64,000 nt of DNA from an uncultured bacterium (lineage in GTDB: Bacteria; Patescibacteriota; Minisyncoccia; UBA6257; 2-01-FULL-56-20), in assembly GCA_963844965.1 (NCBI GenBank), contig CAWJQC010000007.1, forward strand, positions 32,001-96,000, written 5' to 3'. Position numbers and translations under genes: made by a program. Under the pieces are notes generated by a model. The model made no database searches. It was given only the letters and a program-made list of their open reading frames with translations, and was not told the DNA's origin. Positions within the stretch are counted from its first letter, which is position 1; the number at the start of each line of letters is the position of its first letter. Positions 265 through 18,472 of this stretch are shown here, in pieces.

Positions 265-1137
265 CTATTCACGAGAGAAAACAACCTGAGGGCGGAACCC
301 CAAGTCGTCGTCCCGTGCGGCAGGGCCATCCCAGTACACGTCGGAGAGGCCACCGTAGCCTGAGCTGCCGCCATCGAGGCGCCTCGCGCCCTTCTGGTAA
401 GAATCTTCAAACCATTCCCAGGTATTGGTATCGCCCCACTCGGGGTGATAGGCGTTGCCGATGAAGTTCCATTCAATGGCTCGCGGCAGGCGGAGACACT
501 CTTCGGGCACGTCCATTGCCTCCGCTATGGCTTTTTTCACTTCCGGCTTGTTCAGCTCGTCCCAGGAGATGTTGAAGCGGGAGCCTTTCGTCTCAAAGTC
601 CGTAATAATCTTCTTTTTCCTCAAGTCCTCCAAGACGGGTCTGAGAACGTCGTCCTTATATATTTGCTTGCCGCTCTCGTACTTCGGCTTCCCGCGGGTG
701 TCGACGAGAATCCAGGAGGCGGGGAGCTTCAGGGCGTCCTTCGGCAAATCGTCCTTTTTAACATCGGCATAAAATTCAATTCCCCAACCATCGGCATATT
801 TTTTGCCCGGCTTCTTTTTCCAACCAGGCAAATCGCGCTCTTCTGTTAGTTCTTCATCGGGCAAGTAATGGAGCTCGAAGCCCATTTCCTTCCACTTCTC
901 GTATCGTTCGGGTGTGATTTCTTCCGGCAGCGGTGGAACCTCAACGTCGTAGCCGAAGAATTCCCTGAGTTTCTCGGTTTCCTGTTCCATTAGTTCCCTG
1001 AACTCTGCCGAGGATTCGGGCGCTTTCCTTTTCTCCTTCTCCGCCTCGCCCAATGCTTTTTCCACCTTCTTCTGGACGGTGGTTTTGTACTGGTCGGGGT
1101 TATACTCTTCGTAGATTTTGTAACCGGGGAAGGGCAT
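265..1137 (-). CDS. DGR target protein, paralog 1 (C-terminal FGE-sulfatase/C-type-lectin-fold domain carrying the variable region)
   Basis: 290 aa. C-terminus ..CLRLPRAIEWNFIGNAYHPEWGDTNTWEWFEDSY..RRLDGG..LGFRPQVV matches the RLPxEAEWE / GNxWEW / RGG / LGFR motifs of the FGE/SUMF1 fold used by DGR targets. The last ~35 codons are VR1. The N-terminal 2/3 is shared with paralogs 2 and 3. Confidence 0.7.
   Translation of the reverse strand: MPFPGYKIYEEYNPDQYKTTVQKKVEKALGEAEKEKRKAPESSAEFRELMEQETEKLREFFGYDVEVPPLPEEITPERYEKWKEMGFELHYLPDEELTEERDLPGWKKKPGKKYADGWGIEFYADVKKDDLPKDALKLPASWILVDTRGKPKYESGKQIYKDDVLRPVLEDLRKKKIITDFETKGSRFNISWDELNKPEVKKAIAEAMDVPEECLRLPRAIEWNFIGNAYHPEWGDTNTWEWFEDSYQKGARRLDGGSSGYGGLSDVYWDGPAARDDDLGFRPQVVFSRE
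286..391 (-). repeat. DGR variable region VR1
   Basis: 106 bp matching the template repeat at 4576-4681 except at positions that are A in the template sense strand (T on the printed strand); ends with the GC-rich ctgagggcggaaccccaag 3' element. Confidence 0.75.
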
Positions 1138-1142
1138 GGGGG

Positions 1143-3164
1143 TTATAAGTCTTTAGTATATTGAAGAATAACTTTTTGAACGGCCCGCGGCAATTTATTG
1201 ATGTCTTCAATGACTTCCGCGTCGGGCTTGTAGGTTTCTTTCACAGCGGCCCCAGATTCCGTCATCCCGAGTCCCAAAACAATCACTCCTTTCTCGCGAA
1301 GGGCTTTGAGATTTTTTTGAACAAGCTCCGCGTTTTCGCTTTCGCCGTCCGAGAGCACCACGATTACCTTGCGCCTTATCTTTTCTCGAATCTGTCGCTC
1401 GTCTTCTGGCGTCAACGATTTCAATACCTCATCAAGCGATAGATAATCCGGCGTTCCGCCGCCCGCGTTGTGCATTTTCTTCCAAATTGCGATGCGGTCT
1501 TTTTCCGATAGGTCTGGCGAGAGTTTTTTGAGTTCAGCGTCCCCGAAGTCGCCGAACGCTCTCGTTTCGGTTCTCACGCCCAAGCCAACCGGCGTACCGC
1601 TTTCGTACTCGGCCTCCTCAATTTCTTTTTGGAAATCCGCAAGCGATTCCAAGAAGAGAAGCTTGCTCTTCCGGTCCATTTCCAATTTTGATCCCTCGTT
1701 CATGGAACCGGACAGGTCGTTGATCAGGGTCATGTCAAGCGCACCGTATCCTTCCTCCTCCCGTTCTTTGCGCTCGACTTCTCGGAATGCCCTCGGCTCG
1801 CCGCCGCTTTTTGATTCAATGTACGCTTCCGCGATCGCGCCACCTTCTATTTCCTCTCCTTCCCTCTGAAGTTGTGGCCGCACTTTCCAGCGCCGCCGCA
1901 ATCTCCTTGTCACCACTTGTTTGAACACTTCTCGGAGTTCGGCGATGAGCGGTGCGATTTCTTTATATTCATTCCGATAGCCAATTATGTCCTCAGGGCT
2001 TACATTATGCTCTTTGGCCCACTGTTCAAGGATGCTTTGATCAAGCGACGGCATTCCGCCCCGTTCTTTCACGATCGTCTCCATTGTTTTCATGATTTTC
2101 TCCTCGTCTTTCGCGGATAACGGCTCGGGGTGCACATCTTCGTAAGTTTTATATTGCTTCTTGAAATTTTTTTCCGCTTCTTTTCGCGCCGCGCTCTCGC
2201 TCCCCTTATCTTTTTTCTTGTCTTTCTCTTTCCCGCCCTCTTCCTCTTTGCCCTTGCCGGCCTCGGCTTCTTTTTTCTTTTTGAATTTGTCCCACCATTT
2301 TTTATCCTGCTTTTGCTCGCCTTGTCCCCCCTGCCCTTCTTGAGGTTGGCCTTCTCCGGCCTCTTCCTGCCCCTTCCCTTTTTTACCCTTACCTTTCTGC
2401 GTTTCTTTCTCCAGGTCCTTGCGATAGAGCTCCATATAAACCGGCTCGACAACCTGGCGCATAAGCCTGAAGCGATCGCGCGGCTCTATCGTAGGAGTGG
2501 TTACGAGATCCAAAATATCCGTCTTGTCGCCGCCGAAGCTTCTGAGCTTATCGAGCGCTTCTTGGGCTTCGGGACCCACCATAACCTTTTCATCGGGGAC
2601 CATCATCTGACGTATAAAGCCGTAGACGAACTGGACGTGGGCCGCCAGTTCTTGTTCTTGCCCGGTCTTCGGGTCTTCCAGGCGTCGGTAGTCCGTCGCC
2701 GGAAACATTTTCTCTTTATATAAAGTTCGGCGCGTCTCCTCCAAAAATGGTAGTTCGGCGACGATACGCCGATTACCAAGCACATCTTCAAAAATATTAT
2801 GAAGGATGTGGAGCTGCGGTTTTTGCTGGCTGTATCGCTTCGCTTCTTTGAGTATGAACTCGGGGTCTCTCAAGAGCTCGCCGTAATGAGCCATAAGTTC
2901 GTGGGTTGTCGCAAAAAGGGTTTCTTTGAGATTGTAGCCGCGCTCGATAAAAAAGTTAGGATCGTAAATTAGCCGACGGTTTTCAAAATCGAACGCCCAG
3001 CCGTTATTGCCCCTATCAAGCGTGATATCGCCGCGCATGCCGTACGCGCCGAGAATCTCGCCCTCTCTATCGAAAAACGCTTCAATTTCGGATGGCGGCG
3101 CCTCCTTTTTCTCAGCGAGGACGGTATTCTCCTCTGGCGGTTTTTCTGGCGAGAATTTAGTCAC
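1143..3164 (-). CDS. vWA-domain protein with N-terminal HExxH metallopeptidase-like motif and K/E/G-rich linker
   Basis: 673 aa. ATTHELMAH (HExxH) near the N-terminus. C-terminal DMTLINDLSGSM (MIDAS DxSGS) and VVLSDGES, typical of von Willebrand A domains. Long low-complexity KEG linker. Confidence 0.65.
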   Translation of the reverse strand: MTKFSPEKPPEENTVLAEKKEAPPSEIEAFFDREGEILGAYGMRGDITLDRGNNGWAFDFENRRLIYDPNFFIERGYNLKETLFATTHELMAHYGELLRDPEFILKEAKRYSQQKPQLHILHNIFEDVLGNRRIVAELPFLEETRRTLYKEKMFPATDYRRLEDPKTGQEQELAAHVQFVYGFIRQMMVPDEKVMVGPEAQEALDKLRSFGGDKTDILDLVTTPTIEPRDRFRLMRQVVEPVYMELYRKDLEKETQKGKGKKGKGQEEAGEGQPQEGQGGQGEQKQDKKWWDKFKKKKEAEAGKGKEEEGGKEKDKKKDKGSESAARKEAEKNFKKQYKTYEDVHPEPLSAKDEEKIMKTMETIVKERGGMPSLDQSILEQWAKEHNVSPEDIIGYRNEYKEIAPLIAELREVFKQVVTRRLRRRWKVRPQLQREGEEIEGGAIAEAYIESKSGGEPRAFREVERKEREEEGYGALDMTLINDLSGSMNEGSKLEMDRKSKLLFLESLADFQKEIEEAEYESGTPVGLGVRTETRAFGDFGDAELKKLSPDLSEKDRIAIWKKMHNAGGGTPDYLSLDEVLKSLTPEDERQIREKIRRKVIVVLSDGESENAELVQKNLKALREKGVIVLGLGMTESGAAVKETYKPDAEVIEDINKLPRAVQKVILQYTKDL

Positions 3165-4920: not shown

Positions 4921-5799
4921 CTACTCACGAGAGAAAACAACCTGAGGGCGGAACCCCAAGTCGTCGTTCCGTCCGGCAGGGCCATCCCAGTCCACGTGGG
5001 AGAGGCCACCGCGGCCTGAGTGGCCGCCATCGAGGCGCCTCGCGCCCTTTTGGTAAGAGTCCTCGAACCATTCCCAGGTATTCGTCTCACCCCACTTGGG
5101 ATAATAAAGATTTCCCATATAGTTCCATTCAATAGCTCTTGGAAGTCTCAGGGATTCGGGCGGAACGTCGAGTGCCTCCGCGATGGCTTTTTTCACTTCC
5201 GGCTTGTTCAGCTCGTCCCAGGAGATATTATAGCGAGAGTTCTTGACTTTGAAATCCGTGATTATCTTTTTCTTTCTCAAATCCTCAAGTGTCTCTGCCA
5301 GTATGTCTTCGGCATATTTTTGTTTGCCGTCTTGATAGTTGGGCTTTTCGCGGCTGTCCACGAGAATCCACGAGGCAGGTAGTTTGAGGGTGTCTTTCGG
5401 AAGATTGCCGTTCTTTACCTCGTCAAAAAACTCGATACCCCAACTCTTATCCGGAGTGTATCGCGTGCCCGGCTTCTTTTTCCAACCAGGCAAATCGCGC
5501 TCTTCTGTTAGCTCTTCATCGGGCAAGTAATGAAGTTCAAGCCCCATTTCTTTCCACTTTTCGTATCGTTCTGGTGTGATTTCTTCCGGCAGCAGTGGAA
5601 CCTCAACGTCGTAGCCGAAGAATTCCCTGAGTTTCTCGGTTTCCTGCTCCATTAGTTCCCTGAACTCTGCCGAGGATTCGGGTGCTTTCCTTTTCTCCTT
5701 CTCCGCCTCGCCCAATGCTTTTTCCACCTTCTTTTGAACGGTGGTTTTGTACTGGTCGGGGTTATACTCTTCGTAGATTTTGTAACCGGGGAAGGGCAT
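4921..5799 (-). CDS. DGR target protein, paralog 2
   Basis: 292 aa; same architecture as 265..1137; C-terminal VR2. Confidence 0.7.
   Translation of the reverse strand: MPFPGYKIYEEYNPDQYKTTVQKKVEKALGEAEKEKRKAPESSAEFRELMEQETEKLREFFGYDVEVPLLPEEITPERYEKWKEMGLELHYLPDEELTEERDLPGWKKKPGTRYTPDKSWGIEFFDEVKNGNLPKDTLKLPASWILVDSREKPNYQDGKQKYAEDILAETLEDLRKKKIITDFKVKNSRYNISWDELNKPEVKKAIAEALDVPPESLRLPRAIEWNYMGNLYYPKWGETNTWEWFEDSYQKGARRLDGGHSGRGGLSHVDWDGPAGRNDDLGFRPQVVFSRE
4942..5047 (-). repeat. DGR variable region VR2
   Basis: Aligned to TR; substitutions only at TR adenines. Confidence 0.75.
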
Positions 5800-5888: not shown

Positions 5889-6737
5889 CTACTCACGAGA
5901 GAAAACAACCTGAGGGCGGAACCCCAAGCTGCCGAGCCGCTCGGCAGGGTCATCCCAGTCCACGTGGGAGAGGCCACCGAGGCCTGAGCCGCCGCCATCG
6001 AGGCGCCTCGCGCCCTTTTGGTAAGAATCTTCAAACCATTCCCAGGTATTGGTATCGCCCCACTCGGGGTGATAGGCGTTGCCGATAACGTTCCATTCAA
6101 TCGCTCGCGGCAGGCGGAGACACTCTTCGGGCACGTCCATTGCCTCCGCTATGGCCTTTTTGACTTCGGGCTTATTCAGTTCGTCCCAGGAGATGTTGAA
6201 GCGGGAGCCTTTCGTCTCAAAGTCCGTAATAATCTTCTTTTTCCTCAAGTCCTCTAAGACGGGTCTGAGGACGTCGTCCTTATATATTTGCTTGCCGCTC
6301 TCGTACTTCGGCTTCCCGCGGGTGTCGACGAGAATCCAGGCGTCGGGGAGCTTAGCAGCATCGGCAGGGATTTCGTTCGCCTCTAAGCGGCCATAAAACC
6401 AATCTCCAGGTTTCTTTTTCCACCCCGGGAAAGCGGCATCCTTCCTCATCTCTTCCGGGGGAAGGTAGTGCAATTCAAAACCCATCTCTTTCCATTTTTC
6501 ATAACGCTCGGGGGTAACTTCATCGGGTAAGGGCGGGACTTCAACCTCATGACCGAAGAAAGTGCTGAGAGATTCTGTCTCGCGATCTACCAGTTCCCGG
6601 AATTCCGCTGATTCCGGCGTCATTCTCCCTTTCTCCTTCTCCGCCTCGCCCAGTGCTTTTTCCACCTTCTTCTGGACGGTGGTTTTGTACTGGTCGGGGT
6701 TGTACTCTTCATAGATTTTGTAGCCGGGGAAGGGCAT
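5889..6737 (-). CDS. DGR target protein, paralog 3
   Basis: 282 aa; same N-terminal and C-terminal architecture; middle segment divergent; C-terminal VR3. Confidence 0.7.
   Translation of the reverse strand: MPFPGYKIYEEYNPDQYKTTVQKKVEKALGEAEKEKGRMTPESAEFRELVDRETESLSTFFGHEVEVPPLPDEVTPERYEKWKEMGFELHYLPPEEMRKDAAFPGWKKKPGDWFYGRLEANEIPADAAKLPDAWILVDTRGKPKYESGKQIYKDDVLRPVLEDLRKKKIITDFETKGSRFNISWDELNKPEVKKAIAEAMDVPEECLRLPRAIEWNVIGNAYHPEWGDTNTWEWFEDSYQKGARRLDGGGSGLGGLSHVDWDDPAERLGSLGFRPQVVFSRE
5910..6015 (-). repeat. DGR variable region VR3
   Basis: Aligned to TR; substitutions only at TR adenines. Confidence 0.75.
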
Positions 6738-8419: not shown

Positions 8420-8860
8420 ATTATTGCAATTATAGTAGCAAGGCCTTTATTTCTCAAGACTTTCGATTGTTTCCATGATACCATAATAATATAACTGCGT
8501 CAAGTCGCGCGTTTTCGTTCCCGAACGACCCCTGCTCTATCCTCAAAAACCTTGTCAGGGTCTAACTACGAAGGCCCCTTCGCAAGTCCTCTGATCTAAG
8601 TTAGGGTGGATGCAAAGGTCGAAAAATCGTATAATCTCATTAACAACTGAATAACCTCAAAGGCAGAGCCGTAACCCTCGCGAAAAATCGTGCGGCATGG
8701 CTCGAAATCCGTCCTCGGTAGAAAGCTCCTAGTCAGAGCACCGGGGACGGTCATATCTCGAAAGGGGTGTGGGTCCCGCAAGGGATCGCTGGCTGGGAGC
8801 TTTTTATTTCGGTCGATCTCTCGCTGGCACATTAGTAAATAATTAACAAAAAATAAAAAT

Positions 8861-14091: not shown

Positions 14092-14870
14092 CGGAAAAGC
14101 GGAACAAGTCCGCCATGGCGCGGGCCATGGGCGTCTCGCGGGCATCGCTCTACTACGTATCACGGCAGGACAAGAAAGATTGGGCGCTCAAGATCCGCAT
14201 GGAAGAAGAATTGCAGCGCCATCCGGCATACGGTTCCCGGCGCTTGGGACAAGCTCTGGGCGTGAGCCGTCCGCGAGCGCAGCGCGTCATGCGAATCTTC
14301 GGCATAAGGCCGTACCGGAGGCGAGGCAGGAAATACCGGAAATCAAAGGCATCGCGGGCCTTTCCGAACCTCTTACTTGCCATCATGCCCTCGTACGCGA
14401 ACCACGTCTGGGCAACCGATTTCACGGAGTTCCTGTATCGCGGCAAGAAAGTGTACGTGTCCACGATACTCGATCTTTTCACGAGACGATTGATGGGCGT
14501 CCATGTGGCGTTGCGGAAAGGATCGCCCCTCACGATACAGACCCTGGCCAACGCGCTTTTCCACCATCCGCATCCGGTCATCTTCCATTCGGACAACGGC
14601 AGCGAGTACAAGGCACGAGCGTTCACCGATACACTGGGGGACTGTGGCATCACGATCTCGCGGTCGCGGCCCGGTGCCCCATGGGAAAACGGCTACCAGG
14701 AATCGTTCTATGACAAGTTCAAGATTGACCTCGGTGATCCCAACCGGTTCGGGACCTTCGGCGAGCTCGTGGCGGAGATCTACAGCACCTTGTGGCAGTA
14801 CAACCACACGCGGATCCACTCCGCCCTCAAGATGCCGCCGTCCGTGTTTGCCGAGAAGATTGCGGCTTAA
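14088..14870 (+). CDS. IS3 transposase OrfB
   Basis: Identical to the other copies; -1 frame relative to orfA. Confidence 0.85.
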   Translation: MTEKRNKSAMARAMGVSRASLYYVSRQDKKDWALKIRMEEELQRHPAYGSRRLGQALGVSRPRAQRVMRIFGIRPYRRRGRKYRKSKASRAFPNLLLAIMPSYANHVWATDFTEFLYRGKKVYVSTILDLFTRRLMGVHVALRKGSPLTIQTLANALFHHPHPVIFHSDNGSEYKARAFTDTLGDCGITISRSRPGAPWENGYQESFYDKFKIDLGDPNRFGTFGELVAEIYSTLWQYNHTRIHSALKMPPSVFAEKIAA

Positions 14871-14929
14871 CGAAAAAAAACGGCAAAAAGCCGTCGAATC
14901 ACTGTCTAAAGAAACCTATCCTTTACAGG

Positions 14930-15675
14930 GCACGGAATATGGCGAAGGCGGTCATCTTGTCATCCCGACGCTTTCATCGCGGCCGCACCATCATCCACGC
15001 GAACTCGACCGAGCGGTCATTGGCCGCATCCTTGCACTTCGCAGCGAACGGGACCAATGCGCGGAGATCGTCCATCACCGGCTAGAAGAGGAAAAGATTG
15101 CCGTTAGCCTTTCGTCCGTGAAGCGTACACTCAAACGCCACGGTATCACGCGATATTCAAAATGGAAGAAGTGGCACCAGTATCTTCCGCGTCCCATGCC
15201 CACAAAGCCAGGCATATTGGTTGAGATCGATTCAATGCAAGAAGGTATTGCCATGGACCACCTCCATGCGTACGCCTTGATCGACGTATGTTCCCGTTGG
15301 GCGTGGGCATGGCCAGCCGCCCAGGTCTCAAGCCGCTTAAGCGCACGGTTCGTCCAGCAAGCGCAAGCGGCAGCTCCGTTTCCTTTCGTCACAATCCAAT
15401 CCGACCGTGGCGGGGAGTTTTCAAAATGGTTTACCAAGGTCATCGAGCATCAGGGATTTTCACATCGCCACTCGCGCGTACGGACGCCAACAGATAACAG
15501 CCATGTGGAACGGTTCATCCAAACGCTTCAGCGGGACTGTTTACGACGTATCCCTAACACTCTTGCCGCGTGGCGCAAGGAGATTCCCGATTTTCTTCAC
15601 TACTACAATACCGAACGGCCGCACATGGGACTTGATATGAAAACGCCCGTCGAGTGGTTAGAAGCTATTGATTAG
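14930..15675 (+). pseudogene. IS481-like DDE transposase (integrase core), 5' end disrupted or ambiguous
   Basis: ..HTH-like RELDRAVIGRILALRSE.., then DSMQEG..DHLHAYALIDV.., QSDRGGEF.., HYYNTERPHMGLDMKTP. No in-frame ATG after the IS3 right end; the only ATG (14939) is in another frame that closes at 15085. Confidence 0.5.
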
Positions 15676-16129: not shown

Positions 16130-16581
16130 TATCGCACCGGCAGAAACCAGTGGGAACAGGCAAATAAGCCCTCCGCCCCTCGCTTCGCTCGGGGCTACGG
16201 GGTCGCCTTATCCTCGGCCTAAAGGCCGGGGCTTGCGGCGGAGCGGGTCAAATGAGAAACCTCCCACATGCCTCTTTTTTGCCCCAAATGCCCCAAATGA
16301 TCACCGACCGCGGTGCTTCAGGAGCTGGCAAAGCATCTCAAAATGCTTTATATTTCCGTCATAGCCCCGCGACCAGGGTGCTTCGGAAAGGAGTGGAAGG
16401 GTAATCATCAAAATCCCTCAATAACCTTGTGAAACCTCGCTAGGAATACACCCTTAAAAGTTCGACACCGCACGGGGGGCAGGCAGGCCTCCAAGGCGCA
16501 CACCATCGTGGCTCTTGCTTCTGGCTCTGCGGGGGTTTAAGCTATTCGTAGTCCTATTTTTATTTTTACACGGAGACATGA

Positions 16582-17235
16582 TTGCTGAAAGATCCAAGGA
16601 TTCTGAGGCCGGCTCCTCCGAGCGTTTTGATTTGGGACATTGGCGGAGTGCTTATAAGGTATAGAAATCTTTGGGAAGATGGTGAGTTTGTGGGCAACTG
16701 TGCCTGCGGAGTTGCCGAGATAGAGAGGTTCTTTACCAGCTACCCATTTTTTCTCTGCGAGGAGAGTAAAATAAGCGACGCGGAATTATTCGGATTGGTC
16801 AAAGAACAACTTGGGTACAAGTTCGATCTTGGAAAGTTCGCTGTTGATTTCTGCGAATGCTGCCGTTTTGAGTTGGACAGGGAAGTATTCAAACTTTTCT
16901 TGTATATAAAGGTGAAATATGCCGACGTGACGACGCTGTGGGCGCTGAGTAACGTGAATAAAATCCATTATGATTACTTTCGGAAGCTATATCCCGGGCT
17001 CTATGCTAATTTTTCCGAACTTTTTCTGTCTTTCGAAATGGGAGCGAGAAAGCCAGATTTGGCAATCTATGAGAGAATGTGCGGGATGGGCGGAGTTAGT
17101 TATTCCGACTGCCTGCTTATTGATGATAACCCGGAAAACGGCGTTGCGCCGAAGCAACTCGGCATGGGGTTCGTACATTTTGAAAATTCTAGACGGTTGA
17201 GGTTGGCGCTTGCGGTTCGCGGCATCGTGATTTAA
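16582..17235 (+). CDS. HAD-superfamily hydrolase
   Basis: DIGGVL (motif I), ..SN.. , K, DD motif near the C-terminus. Confidence 0.65.
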   Translation: MLKDPRILRPAPPSVLIWDIGGVLIRYRNLWEDGEFVGNCACGVAEIERFFTSYPFFLCEESKISDAELFGLVKEQLGYKFDLGKFAVDFCECCRFELDREVFKLFLYIKVKYADVTTLWALSNVNKIHYDYFRKLYPGLYANFSELFLSFEMGARKPDLAIYERMCGMGGVSYSDCLLIDDNPENGVAPKQLGMGFVHFENSRRLRLALAVRGIVI

Positions 17236-17554
17236 TCCCCCCCAGTCGTTCTTCGGCGGGGGATTTTGATTTTTATCATTGCTTTGGTATTATTTGATTT
17301 GTGCGGAACGCCGATTCTGCCTTCGTTCTGAATTTTTGGGTGTGTAGTTCAGTGGCACCCCGTAGCAAAATTTGGGCACATAGTTCAGCTTGCCCCGCCA
17401 AATTTTACCAGTTAGTAAAATTTGGCGGGGTGAAGTAGAACGTCCCGATATTTGCAAAATTTTCAATTTTGCTAAAATATCGAGGATCCGCGATTTTGCT
17501 TTTCTGTCGCACCGAAAGCAAAATCGGGACTGTCCTGACCCCGCACCAAATTAT

Positions 17555-17626
17555 GCGCGTGTAGCTCAGTGGTAGAGCACAGTCCTGATAAGACTGGGGT
17601 CGATGGTTCAATTCCATCCACGCGCA
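17555..17626 (+). tRNA. tRNA-Ile (anticodon GAU)
   Basis: Full cloverleaf: acceptor gcgcgtg/cacgcgc, D arm gctc-agtggta-gagc, anticodon arm cagtc-ctGATaa-gactg, T arm gatgg-ttcaatt-ccatc, discriminator A; CCA not encoded. Confidence 0.85.
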
Positions 17627-17635
17627 CATCATAAT

Positions 17636-17711
17636 TGGTGCGGGGCAAGTAAGACAGACCTGCCTGCCGGCAGGCAGGGGTCGAAGGTTCGATTCCTTCT
17701 GTGCCCACCAA
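17636..17711 (+). other. tRNA-like 3' module (10-bp perfect hairpin + T arm + acceptor strand + encoded CCA), no canonical 5' half
   Basis: ttggtgcgggg...cctgcctgccggcaggcagg ggtc gaagg-ttcgatt-ccttc tgtgccc a CCA; the complementary acceptor strand gggcaca lies ~300 nt upstream at 17375. Confidence 0.3.
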
Positions 17712-17728
17712 AAACATAATTACAGCTC

Positions 17729-18472
17729 ATGTCGGAACCCGAAATTATCTATCAAGACGAGAATTTTCTGGCGGTCAACAAGCCGGCAGGCCTGCTGGTT
17801 CACAAGGCGCGAATTACCAATTACCAATTACCAATTACCAATGAGCCCACCTTGGTTGATTGGCTGCTTAAGAAATATCCTGAGATAAAAAACGTAGGCG
17901 ATGACCCCGAGACGCGACCAGGGATTGTTCATCGGCTGGATAAGGATACTTCCGGCGTGATGCTCGTGGCGAAAAACCAAAAATATTTTGAGTATCTGAA
18001 GTCGCTTTTCCAGAGACATGAAGTTAAAAAAACCTACCTGGCGGTGGTGGCGGGAGAATTGCGGCCGAGAGCGGGGGTTATAAGCAAGCCGATTGGCATT
18101 AAAAGCGGGACGACGAAACACAGCGTTCACTCCAAAAAGTTTTTAAAGGATGCGGTCACGGAGTATGGGGTCGTAAAATCGCTGAAATTGGATAGCGGTC
18201 GCGGTGAGGAGCGGGGATTTTCTCTGGTGGAAGTATGGCCCAAGACCGGCAGGACGCACCAAATCCGAGTGCATTTCGCGAGCATCGGGCACCCGGTCGT
18301 CGGCGACTTGCTCTATGGTCCCAAAAAGCAGCCAGAGTGGGCAACTCGTCTCATGCTTCACGCGCTATCTTTGGAATTTGCCGCGGCCGAAGGCAAGGTG
18401 TTGAAGATAGAGGCGGAGCCACCCGAAGAGTTCACTAAGTTTGCTGAAGTTGCGAGGTTGAAGGGCGGATAA
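17729..18472 (+). CDS. RluA-family pseudouridine synthase
   Basis: HRLDKDTSGVMLVAKN catalytic motif; contains a 4x ttaccaa heptamer repeat at 17814-17841. Confidence 0.8.
   Translation: MSEPEIIYQDENFLAVNKPAGLLVHKARITNYQLPITNEPTLVDWLLKKYPEIKNVGDDPETRPGIVHRLDKDTSGVMLVAKNQKYFEYLKSLFQRHEVKKTYLAVVAGELRPRAGVISKPIGIKSGTTKHSVHSKKFLKDAVTEYGVVKSLKLDSGRGEERGFSLVEVWPKTGRTHQIRVHFASIGHPVVGDLLYGPKKQPEWATRLMLHALSLEFAAAEGKVLKIEAEPPEEFTKFAEVARLKGG

Follow-up and report, generated by a model that had tools for sequence, protein, structure and literature searches.

A 64,000-nucleotide stretch of DNA from an uncultured bacterium of the Patescibacteriota (GenBank assembly GCA_963844965.1, contig CAWJQC010000007.1, positions 32,001 to 96,000; the window from here on) contains an intact tRNA-Ile(GAU) gene surrounded by what look like pieces of other tRNA genes. 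The original prediction, made from the letters alone, had listed several of those pieces and offered three readings, namely a tRNA with one very large intron hosting the tRNA-Ile, a split or permuted tRNA, and nested fragments left by serial integrations at a tRNA gene. The locus raises two questions: to what gene the pieces belong, and how one tRNA gene came to lie within another. Regarding the first, positions 17374-17710 are a complete tRNA-Ile(GAU) gene in five colinear pieces separated by four insertions, one of which carries the intact gene. Regarding the second, we lean towards viewing the whole locus as a stack of three generations of tRNA-Ile(GAU) genes, in which older, interrupted genes (hosts or shells) surround the gene that they received (cargo).

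A complete tRNA-Ile gene in five pieces

Ordinary, uninterrupted tRNA-Ile(GAU) genes for comparison were obtained by scanning one genome per species with a 22-nt T-arm/acceptor string. They come from Harrisonbacteria (L003; loci of other genomes are referred to by such numbers) and from other Patescibacteria (L002 and L004), and the reference sequence reads GGGCACA TA GTTC AGTGGTA GAAC G CTGTC CTGATAA GACAG AGGTC GAAGG TTCGATT CCTTC TGTGCCC A. When 17393-17434, 17443-17529, 17539-17649 and 17659-17678 are removed, the remaining sequence is identical to the reference genes outside the D loop, and the spliced product is called by ARAGORN as a tRNA-Ile(gat) with a normal cloverleaf (in that run the element at position 26/27 was cut 1 nt further to the right, at 17444-17529). 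In the unspliced locus the same program reports the inner gene only, intron mode included. The 25-nt string of T arm and acceptor occurs a single time in the window, the number of matches expected by chance being 0. Folding of 17375-17713 (339 nt) gave -162 kcal/mol, compared with -98 +/- 4.8 in shuffled sequences (z = -13.3), and in the predicted structure the outer acceptor stem closes the whole while the inner cloverleaf stays intact. Rfam searches, done at the gathering threshold on the whole window and with permissive E-values on the locus and on the nest of L026, returned only intact tRNAs around the nests, with no ribozyme, group I intron or tmRNA among the matches; a 29.1-bit tRNA match at 17643-17707 corresponds to the outer 3' half pairing with a degenerate GGGCAAG.

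The elements listed in the original prediction are all present, most of them 1 nt upstream of where it had placed them. The inner tRNA-Ile(GAU) at 17555-17626 is recovered by ARAGORN and Rfam alike, the 11-bp inverted repeat around it lies at 17539-17549 and 17635-17645, and the 10+10 palindrome, the T arm, the TGTGCCC strand, the discriminator A and the encoded CCA follow as described. The proposed 5' partner, GGGCACA followed by TA GTTC AG, starts at 17374, and the hairpin between the halves exists as well, with a perfect stem of 16 bp at 17393-17430 and not the 15 bp suggested. What had been overlooked were the 3' strand of the D stem, the two halves of the anticodon stem and loop, and the 26/27 element, and it is these that make the outer gene complete. 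An ordinary second tRNA, which would have explained the pieces away, is not given by the tRNA finders, and relatives do carry the pieces. With five pieces in natural order on one strand within 337 nt, a split or permuted tRNA was discarded, and the single very large intron gives way to four separate insertions. The parts of the locus, with gene types named after the acceptor 5' strand, are the following.

17266-17293 (+), promoter-like site TTGATT, 16 nt, TATTAT, with TG, from a consensus scan; upstream of the whole stack, putative function
17338-17357 (+), layer 0: 5' half of an older tRNA-Ile, GGGTGTG TA GTTC AGTGGCA, broken in the D loop at 21/22
17358-17373 (+), 5' arm CCCCGTAGCAAAATTT of the cassette, inserted in the D loop, whose cargo was the GGGCACA-type gene
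17374-17392 (+), outer gene, exon 1: acceptor 5' strand GGGCACA, TA, D stem GTTC, D loop AGCTTG
17393-17434 (+), insertion 1 (D loop), 42 nt: empty module, hairpin CCCCGCCAAATTTTAC/GTAAAATTTGGCGGGG plus TGAA
17435-17442 (+), outer gene, exon 2: GTA GAAC G (end of D loop, D stem 3' strand GAAC at 17438-17441, position 26)
17443-17529 (+), insertion 2 (26/27), 87 nt: TCCCG...CGGGA, two hairpins linked by CGAGGATCC
17530-17538 (+), outer gene, exon 3: 5' strand of the anticodon stem, CTGTC, then loop CTGA up to and including A35
17539-17554 (+), insertion 3 (35/36): 5' arm CCCCGCACCAA at 17539-17549 and leader ATTAT
17555-17626 (+), innermost intact tRNA-Ile(GAU), GCGCGTG type, no encoded CCA (ARAGORN; Rfam tRNA, 74.4 bits)
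17627-17649 (+), insertion 3, continued: trailer CATCATAA, 3' arm TTGGTGCGGGG at 17635-17645, 4-nt tail CAAG
17650-17658 (+), outer gene, exon 4: TAA (36-38) and anticodon stem 3' strand GACAG, together 17650-17657, then A44
17659-17678 (+), insertion 4 (variable loop, 44/45), 20 nt: perfect 10+10 palindrome CCTGCCTGCC/GGCAGGCAGG
17679-17710 (+), outer gene, exon 5: GGTC, T arm GAAGG TTCGATT CCTTC (17683-17699), acceptor 3' strand TGTGCCC (17700-17706), A73 (17707), encoded CCA (17708-17710)

Layer 0, which contains the second TAGTTCAG unit (17345-17352), matches exactly the first 20 nt of an intact GGGTGTG-type tRNA-Ile in L032 and differs in one D-loop base from the one in L028; a split host of this type is also found in L026. 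Its 3' partner is absent downstream within the window, as is from the window any 3' arm matching CCCCGTAGCAAAATTT; the complete two-arm cassette is present in L017 and L026. Exon 1 of the outer gene agrees with the normal tRNA-Ile genes of L003 and L004. The site of insertion 1 is occupied by a tRNA-Val in L017, a tRNA-Ile in L024 and a cargo of about 100 nt in L026, and homologues of the 26/27 element, always at 26/27, are found in the Ile host (82%) and the Val host (92%) of L026 and in L028. Insertion 3 comprises 111 nt, 72 of which are a complete tRNA, presumed to be the functional gene of the locus. The arms CCCCGCACCAA and TTGGTGCGGGG are complementary at 11 of 11 positions and, allowing for one bulged A, five further pairs extend the helix to the 5' end of the tRNA; the junction on the 3' side (...GGGG CAAG|TAA) recurs in L011. 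An identical copy of the insertion-4 palindrome occupies the same site of the host 3' half in L032, with a longer version in L017. Sequences similar to the promoter-like site (ttgatttt...tata) precede tRNA-Ile in L030 and L032. A further promoter-like pair, TTTGCA, 16 nt, TAAAAT, with TG, lies at 17451-17478 (+) in the first hairpin of the 26/27 element, and the Ile-host copy in L026, of different sequence, again has TTGTCT...TACAAT; the pair could be an internal promoter of the cargo or a mere by-product of an AT-rich palindrome.

Recurrence in related genomes

Relatives were collected by a metagenome scan with the 22-mer and by look-ups of RluA homologues, which yielded 27 more loci. In ten of them (L011, L012, L017, L020, L022, L024, L026, L028, L029 and L032) a tRNA lies inside or directly beside split tRNA-like halves. 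Most of these ten nests share one junction pattern, in which the host loop is followed by CCCC(G), a helix, (C)GGGG and about 4 nt before the host loop resumes. Insertion sites recur too. The D loop is entered after AGCTTG in the window, L017, L024 and L026, and at 21/22, where the arms are CCCCGTAG in every case and the tail is CAGG or TAAG, in layer 0 of the window, L017 (twice), L026 and the Thr host of L020; TCCCG...CGGGA elements lie at 26/27 of Ile and Val hosts in the window, L026 and L028; and position 35/36 is used in Ile hosts of the window, L011, L020, L022, L026 and L028, in the Val host of L028 and in the Thr host of L020. The letters at this last junction are CTGA|...|TAA in the window, L011 and L022, TGA|C in the Val host of L028 and TTTG|TAA in the Thr host of L020. 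Further sites across the nests are 29/30, 39/40, the variable loop and the T loop, and those at 29/30 and 39/40 split a stem.

Wherever the host can be typed, the isotype of the cargo is that of the host: Ile in Ile at least eight times, Val in Val-like hosts four times, Ala(UGC) in Ala(UGC) and Thr(UGU) in a Thr-like host. The innermost gene is always intact and always the one that tRNA finders call. Cargo tRNAs have the same orientation as their hosts throughout, while the non-tRNA cargo of about 100 nt is found in both. No bracketing helix surrounds the stand-alone tRNAs of the same contigs, the tRNA-Asn of the window included, and the 64-kb window has no further copy of the arms, the 26/27 core or the palindromes, save for one possible Val relic near 16478. 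The 3' exon and three junction sequences gave no match when viral contigs were searched with them.

The arms have kept their pairing although their sequence varies. Across the outer 12 bp in 20 modules, pairs are formed in 92.5% of the cells, and double-sided changes number 52, compared with 18 +/- 3 in shuffles, the outer CCCC/GGGG pairs being nearly invariant. In the curated arms G.U exceeds A.C by 16 to 4 (p about 0.01, with modules that are not fully independent), an excess that fits a need for pairing in the sense transcript. In the cargo trailers of L011, L017 (two cassettes) and L024 the last 4-5 nt of the acceptor 3' strand are repeated, in the layout ...TGTGCCC A C, 2-7 nt, GCCC, arm, so that the arm helix can extend into the first 4-5 nt of the tRNA as an alternative to the acceptor stem. 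A variant of the nests without CCCC/GGGG ends was seen at 6259-6320 (-) of L004 and in the identical L008, where a 28-nt 5' fragment of tRNA-Ile (through position 29) stands just upstream of an intact tRNA-Ile whose leader CAAGTATTTTGGTG and trailer CACCAAAATACTTG lengthen the acceptor stem.

At the orthologous position, defined by the HAD hydrolase or DprA on one side of the tRNA locus and RluA on the other, the relatives form a series of states. Liptonbacteria (L030) have a plain tRNA-Ile between hydrolase and RluA. In L032 an intact GGGTGTG-type tRNA-Ile directly behind the promoter-like sequence is followed by a 3' arm and by a host 3' half, which has the 20-nt palindrome and ends in CACGCGC-A, the acceptor of the inner gene of the window; L029 likewise keeps relics of half a shell. 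An intact GGGTGTG-type cargo lies at 35/36 of a GGGCGGC-type shell in L028, where the shell has a mismatched T stem and the change A35G, with which the anticodon loop would read GGU. In L026 the GGGTGTG gene is itself split, at D-loop 21/22, by a cassette with an intact GGGCACA-type gene, and this nest sits at 35/36 of an outer GGGCACA-type shell that shares the D-loop module and the 26/27 element with the window; the nest of L017 is three layers deep. In the window the GGGCACA gene, intact as cargo in L017 and L026, is split by the GCGCGTG-type gene.

The same gene types can be seen to exchange roles along this series. L028 and L032 have the GGGTGTG type as cargo, whereas L026 and the window have it as shell; the GGGCACA type is cargo in L017, L026, L011, L020, L022 and L024 and shell in the window and L012; and the GCGCGTG type is shell in L032 and cargo in the window. 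Shells in relatives are damaged or lack parts: stems of the acceptor or T arm are mismatched in L017 and L022, one anticodon arm in L017 has shrunk to a plain hairpin, and whole halves are gone, the 5' one in L032 and the 3' one in L020 and, in the window, in layer 0. These defects argue that shells are dispensable, and the role swaps, together with the loss of either shell half, point to repeated replacement.

Some sequences also point to exchange between genomes. Identity of the RluA DNA among nest genomes is 66-73%. Between L017 and L026, the identity of the 119-nt CCCCGTAGC cassette reaches 97.5% (45 of 47 positions outside the tRNA), although it lies in different host alleles in the two and is adjacent to RluA DNA that is 67% identical. 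A 44-nt block of the window (17345-17388) is 100% identical to 5860-5817 of L017, and the 26/27 element of the window is nearer to the Val-host copy of L026 than to the Ile-host copy (92% and 82%). The two orientations of the non-tRNA cargo likewise hint at mobility or exchange. The inner tRNA-Ile of the window and the tRNA-Val(GAC) at 1818-1890 of L028 have acceptor stem and D arm in common (GCGCGTG TA GCTC AGTGG.A GAGC ... CACGCGC A) and differ in the anticodon and T arms, a pattern of letters which suggests that neighbouring Val and Ile nests exchanged segments. In relatives a Val nest lies just upstream of the Ile nest; in the window, 16450-16500 (+), upstream of the hydrolase gene, contains ...GTTCGACACCGCACGGGGGGCAGGCAGGCCTCCAAGGCGCACACC and resembles a relic of a tRNA-Val 3' half with a GGCAGGCAGG arm, its AAGGCGC-A being the Val acceptor strand of L026. 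In L017, 4455-4556 (-) has a helix of CCCCCACACCAAT.../...ATTGGTGTGGGGG like that of the T-loop module of its nest, with T-arm-like flanks. It was rejected as a second copy of the module and as evidence of transposition, since its 5' arm is RluA coding sequence, encoding SPPHQF, homologous to EPPEEF in the RluA of the window; the resemblance suggests copying between the 3' end of the RluA gene and the nest.

Replacement, splicing or function of the shells

The explanation that we favour, with modest confidence, is serial replacement at the DNA level by helix-armed tRNA cassettes. A cassette with CCCC.../...GGGG ends would land in, or recombine into, a loop of a resident gene of the same isotype, and the loss of this essential gene would be survivable because the cassette brings a working tRNA of that isotype. 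In the window, the oldest GGGTGTG gene would have taken a GGGCACA-type cargo in its D loop, and the GGGCACA gene would later have taken the GCGCGTG-type cargo at 35/36. Split shells may then gather hairpin insertions (D loop, 26/27, variable loop), recombine with each other and lose halves. A single precursor of the whole stack would be made from the promoter-like site at 17266-17293, with the GC-clamped arms probably preventing mispairing of shell and cargo and presenting the inner tRNA for processing of its 5' and 3' ends. The observations comprise the anatomy of the locus and its recurrence, the rule of matching isotypes, an innermost gene that is intact, the orthologous series and the exchange of roles; the mobility of cassettes as DNA, or their spread by recombination, and the lack of function of the shells are what we infer from the sequences compared.

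Several results weigh against this explanation. The exons of the outer 5' halves of the window and L026 differ at 1 of 36 positions, compared with 16 of 87 in the intervening element (p = 0.02) and with 29% in the DNA of the neighbouring RluA gene (p = 2e-4), a conservation that could reflect gene conversion, recent transfer with exons as homology arms, or a function of the shells. Each of the four insertions in the outer gene of the window folds by itself and is placed in a loop or at a helix junction, which is the look to be expected of a spliced or tolerated insertion. No strand-specific RNA signature appeared in a folding test of whole nests, with 104 G.U pairs in the sense and 87 in the antisense strand. 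At the nests neither an inserting enzyme nor a target-site duplication nor an autonomous element was found, and the sole open reading frame (ORF) in one of them (L029, 379 aa, 799-1938 (+), between the intact tRNA-Ile and the host 3' relic) has no significant match in Pfam, NCBIfam or PDB. Finally, one 22-mer and one synteny block were the entry points to the relatives, so that locus frequencies are biased, and the genome was examined over 64 kb, from which it cannot be demonstrated that the inner gene is the only tRNA-Ile(GAU).

Whether the cassettes go as far as constituting a new class of selfish tRNA-gene element or, as a related option, a new bacterial tRNA intervening sequence is a tentative proposal which we hold to be possible and somewhat doubtful. 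As a selfish element, a cassette would interrupt, at a fixed point of the tRNA structure, a single-copy tRNA gene that is essential and would rescue the cell with its own copy, spreading by recombination with the conserved tRNA halves as homology arms or by means of a helix-specific enzyme; repeated invasion by such disrupt-and-rescue cassettes would produce nests in the manner of Russian dolls. As intervening sequences, empty hairpin modules would be removed or tolerated at the RNA level. A helix followed by about 4 nt on its 3' side is, by analogy, the geometry of an acceptor stem with NCCA, as measured by enzymes of the RNase P and RNase Z types.

Among the alternatives to serial replacement, the one that fares best takes the outer gene for a tRNA-Ile that works in spite of its several interruptions, although we judge it unlikely. 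The modules would then be a new protein-dependent intron or excised intervening sequence, cut at the base of the helix (5') and about 4 nt past it (3'), with religated exons and two tRNA-Ile per transcript. Exons that are intact, colinear, identical to functional tRNA-Ile genes and better conserved than the insertions between them would be expected in such a gene, as would self-folding insertions at the D loop, 26/27, 35/36 and the variable loop, the constant shared orientation of host and cargo, and the preponderance of G.U over A.C in the arms. Arm families are moreover bound to sites in the way of intron lineages (CCCCGTAG at 21/22 in Ile and Thr hosts, the 26/27 element in Ile and Val hosts), and 35/36 is known as an intron site in tRNAs of Patescibacteria (PMC13011429). 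However, no motif of the bulge-helix-bulge (BHB) type can be drawn at any junction, Rfam detects no group I core, and the base at -1 is A. Shells of relatives have lost whole halves or have the A35G change and broken stems, some insertions split stems (29/30, 39/40), and the non-tRNA cargo occurs in either orientation. Besides, each interrupted gene seen has an intact tRNA of its own isotype inside or next to it, which harmless introns would not need.

It seems more doubtful still that the whole transcript of 337-375 nt is a functional structured RNA, a tRNA-shaped, CCA-ended scaffold or tRNA mimic that would stabilise, time or regulate the release of the inner tRNA-Ile and whose shells would be kept as useful. 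The extreme stability of the fold, closed by the outer acceptor stem, would agree with such a role, and so would the encoding of CCA on the outer 3' end only, the conserved shell exons, the conservation of the 26/27 element with compensatory changes in its first hairpin, and the persistence of nests in streamlined genomes whose RluA DNA has diverged to the extent given above. The orthologous series speaks against it, as a plain tRNA-Ile suffices at the same position in L030 and the 5' shell is missing in L032. Depth, sites and content vary widely among close relatives, unlike in a conserved RNA machine, no Rfam family matches, the helices are mostly perfect palindromes, and the whole-nest test lacks strand bias.

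Of the three readings in the original prediction, the serial integrations come nearest to what is seen: nested pieces are there, and the series of states in relatives agrees with their successive arrival. However, the pieces are neither ordinary attachment-site (att) debris nor linked to the insertion sequence (IS) cluster upstream. As a classical case of insertion and excision by an integrase, or of IS remains at a tRNA gene, with att duplications and incidental hairpins, the locus is improbable. It is true that tRNA genes are frequent integration sites, that partial tRNA copies are present here and that an rve-type DDE integrase ORF lies at 14503-15675. Nevertheless, att duplications are direct repeats of a 3' part around an island, and what is found here are whole tRNAs in loops with inverted arms, with neither an island nor a tyrosine integrase at the locus. 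The IS ORF and its cluster lie beyond the HAD hydrolase gene, the nests of L017, L026, L028 and L032 have no called rve-type gene in the stretches fetched, and the recurrent junctions and the covariation of the arms are not incidental. An assembly artefact or chance resemblance can be dismissed almost entirely: repeats, tRNA genes among them, may be collapsed or made chimeric in metagenome assemblies, but the same architecture and junctions recur in independent assemblies from JGI, NCBI and other public sources, complementary and covarying arms cannot arise by mis-assembly, and the match statistics exclude chance.

Known systems, implications and surroundings

The closest precedent is the report by Nakagawa et al. 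2026 (PMC13011429) of group I introns at the anticodon-loop position 35/36 of tRNA-Asn and tRNA-Asp in Patescibacteria, which has in common with the nests the phylum, the site and a host gene overlooked by standard tRNA finders. In contrast, the hosts of nests are Ile, Val or Thr, and further insertions in the gene described here occupy its D loop, position 26/27 and variable loop. Insertion 3 does lie at 35/36 and ends in G (CAAG), but a group I intron was rejected for it, as no core was detected by Rfam (E<=10 on 17200-17800, E<=1 on the nest of L026), the last exon base is A35 and not U, and the length is 111 nt compared with about 200 nt or more. Disrupted tRNA genes of archaea and red algae resemble the locus in having several self-folding insertions per gene (D, anticodon, variable and T loops); they differ from it in that its host is bacterial, its junctions have no BHB, its pieces are colinear, its cargo is a tRNA of the same isotype and its relatives have plainly damaged or partial shells. 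The BHB intron was rejected by inspection, internal loops being asymmetric (4x7 at 35/36, 7x4 and 6x7 in the D loop) without a 4-bp central helix, and the 5' boundary falling directly at the base of a continuous helix of 11-18 bp. Transfer-messenger RNA (tmRNA) was discarded as well, given the pair G3-C70 in place of G3.U70, the lack of a single-stranded tag region and the lack of any tmRNA call by ARAGORN.

Integrative elements with tRNA genes as their targets follow the same principle, in that the DNA coming in makes good what its insertion destroys. Here, in contrast, what is supplied is a complete tRNA and not a 3' segment, brought by a unit of about 110 nt with inverted arms and no integrase, which lies inside loops and whose successive events nest. 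An integrase island was rejected on these grounds: the neighbours are the HAD hydrolase and RluA, the nearest mobile ORF is of the DDE rve type and 1.7 kb away, and repeats are nested instead of direct and flanking. Rickettsia palindromic elements, Correia and repetitive extragenic palindromic (REP)-type sequences, mitochondrial GC clusters and the rRNA intervening sequences removed by RNase III are similar in being GC-clamped hairpins in loops of structured RNAs, with no coding capacity and no obvious autonomous partner nearby. The nest helices, of 11-18 bp in loops, have a geometry compatible with a bacterial intervening sequence of the rRNA type. However, nest modules are not dispersed in the 64 kb and produce no target-site duplication, some carry a tRNA gene, and arm families are tied to tRNA positions. 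Arms of that length with conserved CCCC/GGGG ends also look like the terminal inverted repeats of miniature inverted-repeat transposable elements (MITEs), but a DDE-type MITE was rejected, as there is no duplication at any junction (CTGA|..|CAAG TAA; GGCA|..|CAGG GAAC) and the modules are confined to the tRNA nest within the 64 kb. Synthetic cleave-and-rescue and home-and-rescue drives follow the same logic of disrupting a gene and carrying its rescue, a conceptual analogy only, as this is a natural bacterial locus with no nuclease or drive shown. Full-text searches, with subscription-only literature outside their reach, found no description of nested tRNA-in-tRNA or hairpin-interrupted bacterial tRNA genes. 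By their defining tests the locus falls outside group I and BHB introns, split or permuted tRNAs, tmRNA, integrase islands and DDE-type MITEs, so that its architecture would be a new one.

If serial replacement is correct, whole tRNA genes of bacteria can lie within loops of their predecessors, in nests of up to three or four layers, and an essential single-copy gene can be inhabited by an insertion that takes its place. Standard tRNA finders call the innermost gene alone and miss the shells, and long "gene-free" gaps beside tRNAs of Patescibacteria would be stacks of tRNA generations, a record, similar to strata, of tRNA allele turnover and probably also of exchange between species. The arms would raise the question of how pre-tRNAs are processed in these organisms. 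If, on the other hand, shells were spliced, there would be a protein-dependent tRNA splicing system in Bacteria, and reads joining CTGTCCTGA to TAAGACAG would represent the exon junction.

The surroundings of the nest are bacterial, with the HAD-IA hydrolase, the RluA-type pseudouridine synthase and type IV pilins as neighbours in the window; the closest homologues of this RluA are from Liptonbacteria, Paceibacterota and other Patescibacteria. Near its N-terminus the RluA gene has four in-frame copies of the 7-nt unit AATTACC (17812-17839, +), and the RluA of L017 has a different low-complexity repeat near its C-terminus. Away from the nest, a full-length match to the Rfam LOOT RNA was found at 8667-8787 (+), with 83 bits compared with a gathering score of 46.4. 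The hairpin scan also returned near-identical flank pairs on the reverse strand, 298-445 / 5922-6069 and 782-1129 / 5438-5791 (-), which suggests that a segment near the start of the window, probably IS-related, is repeated in two copies.

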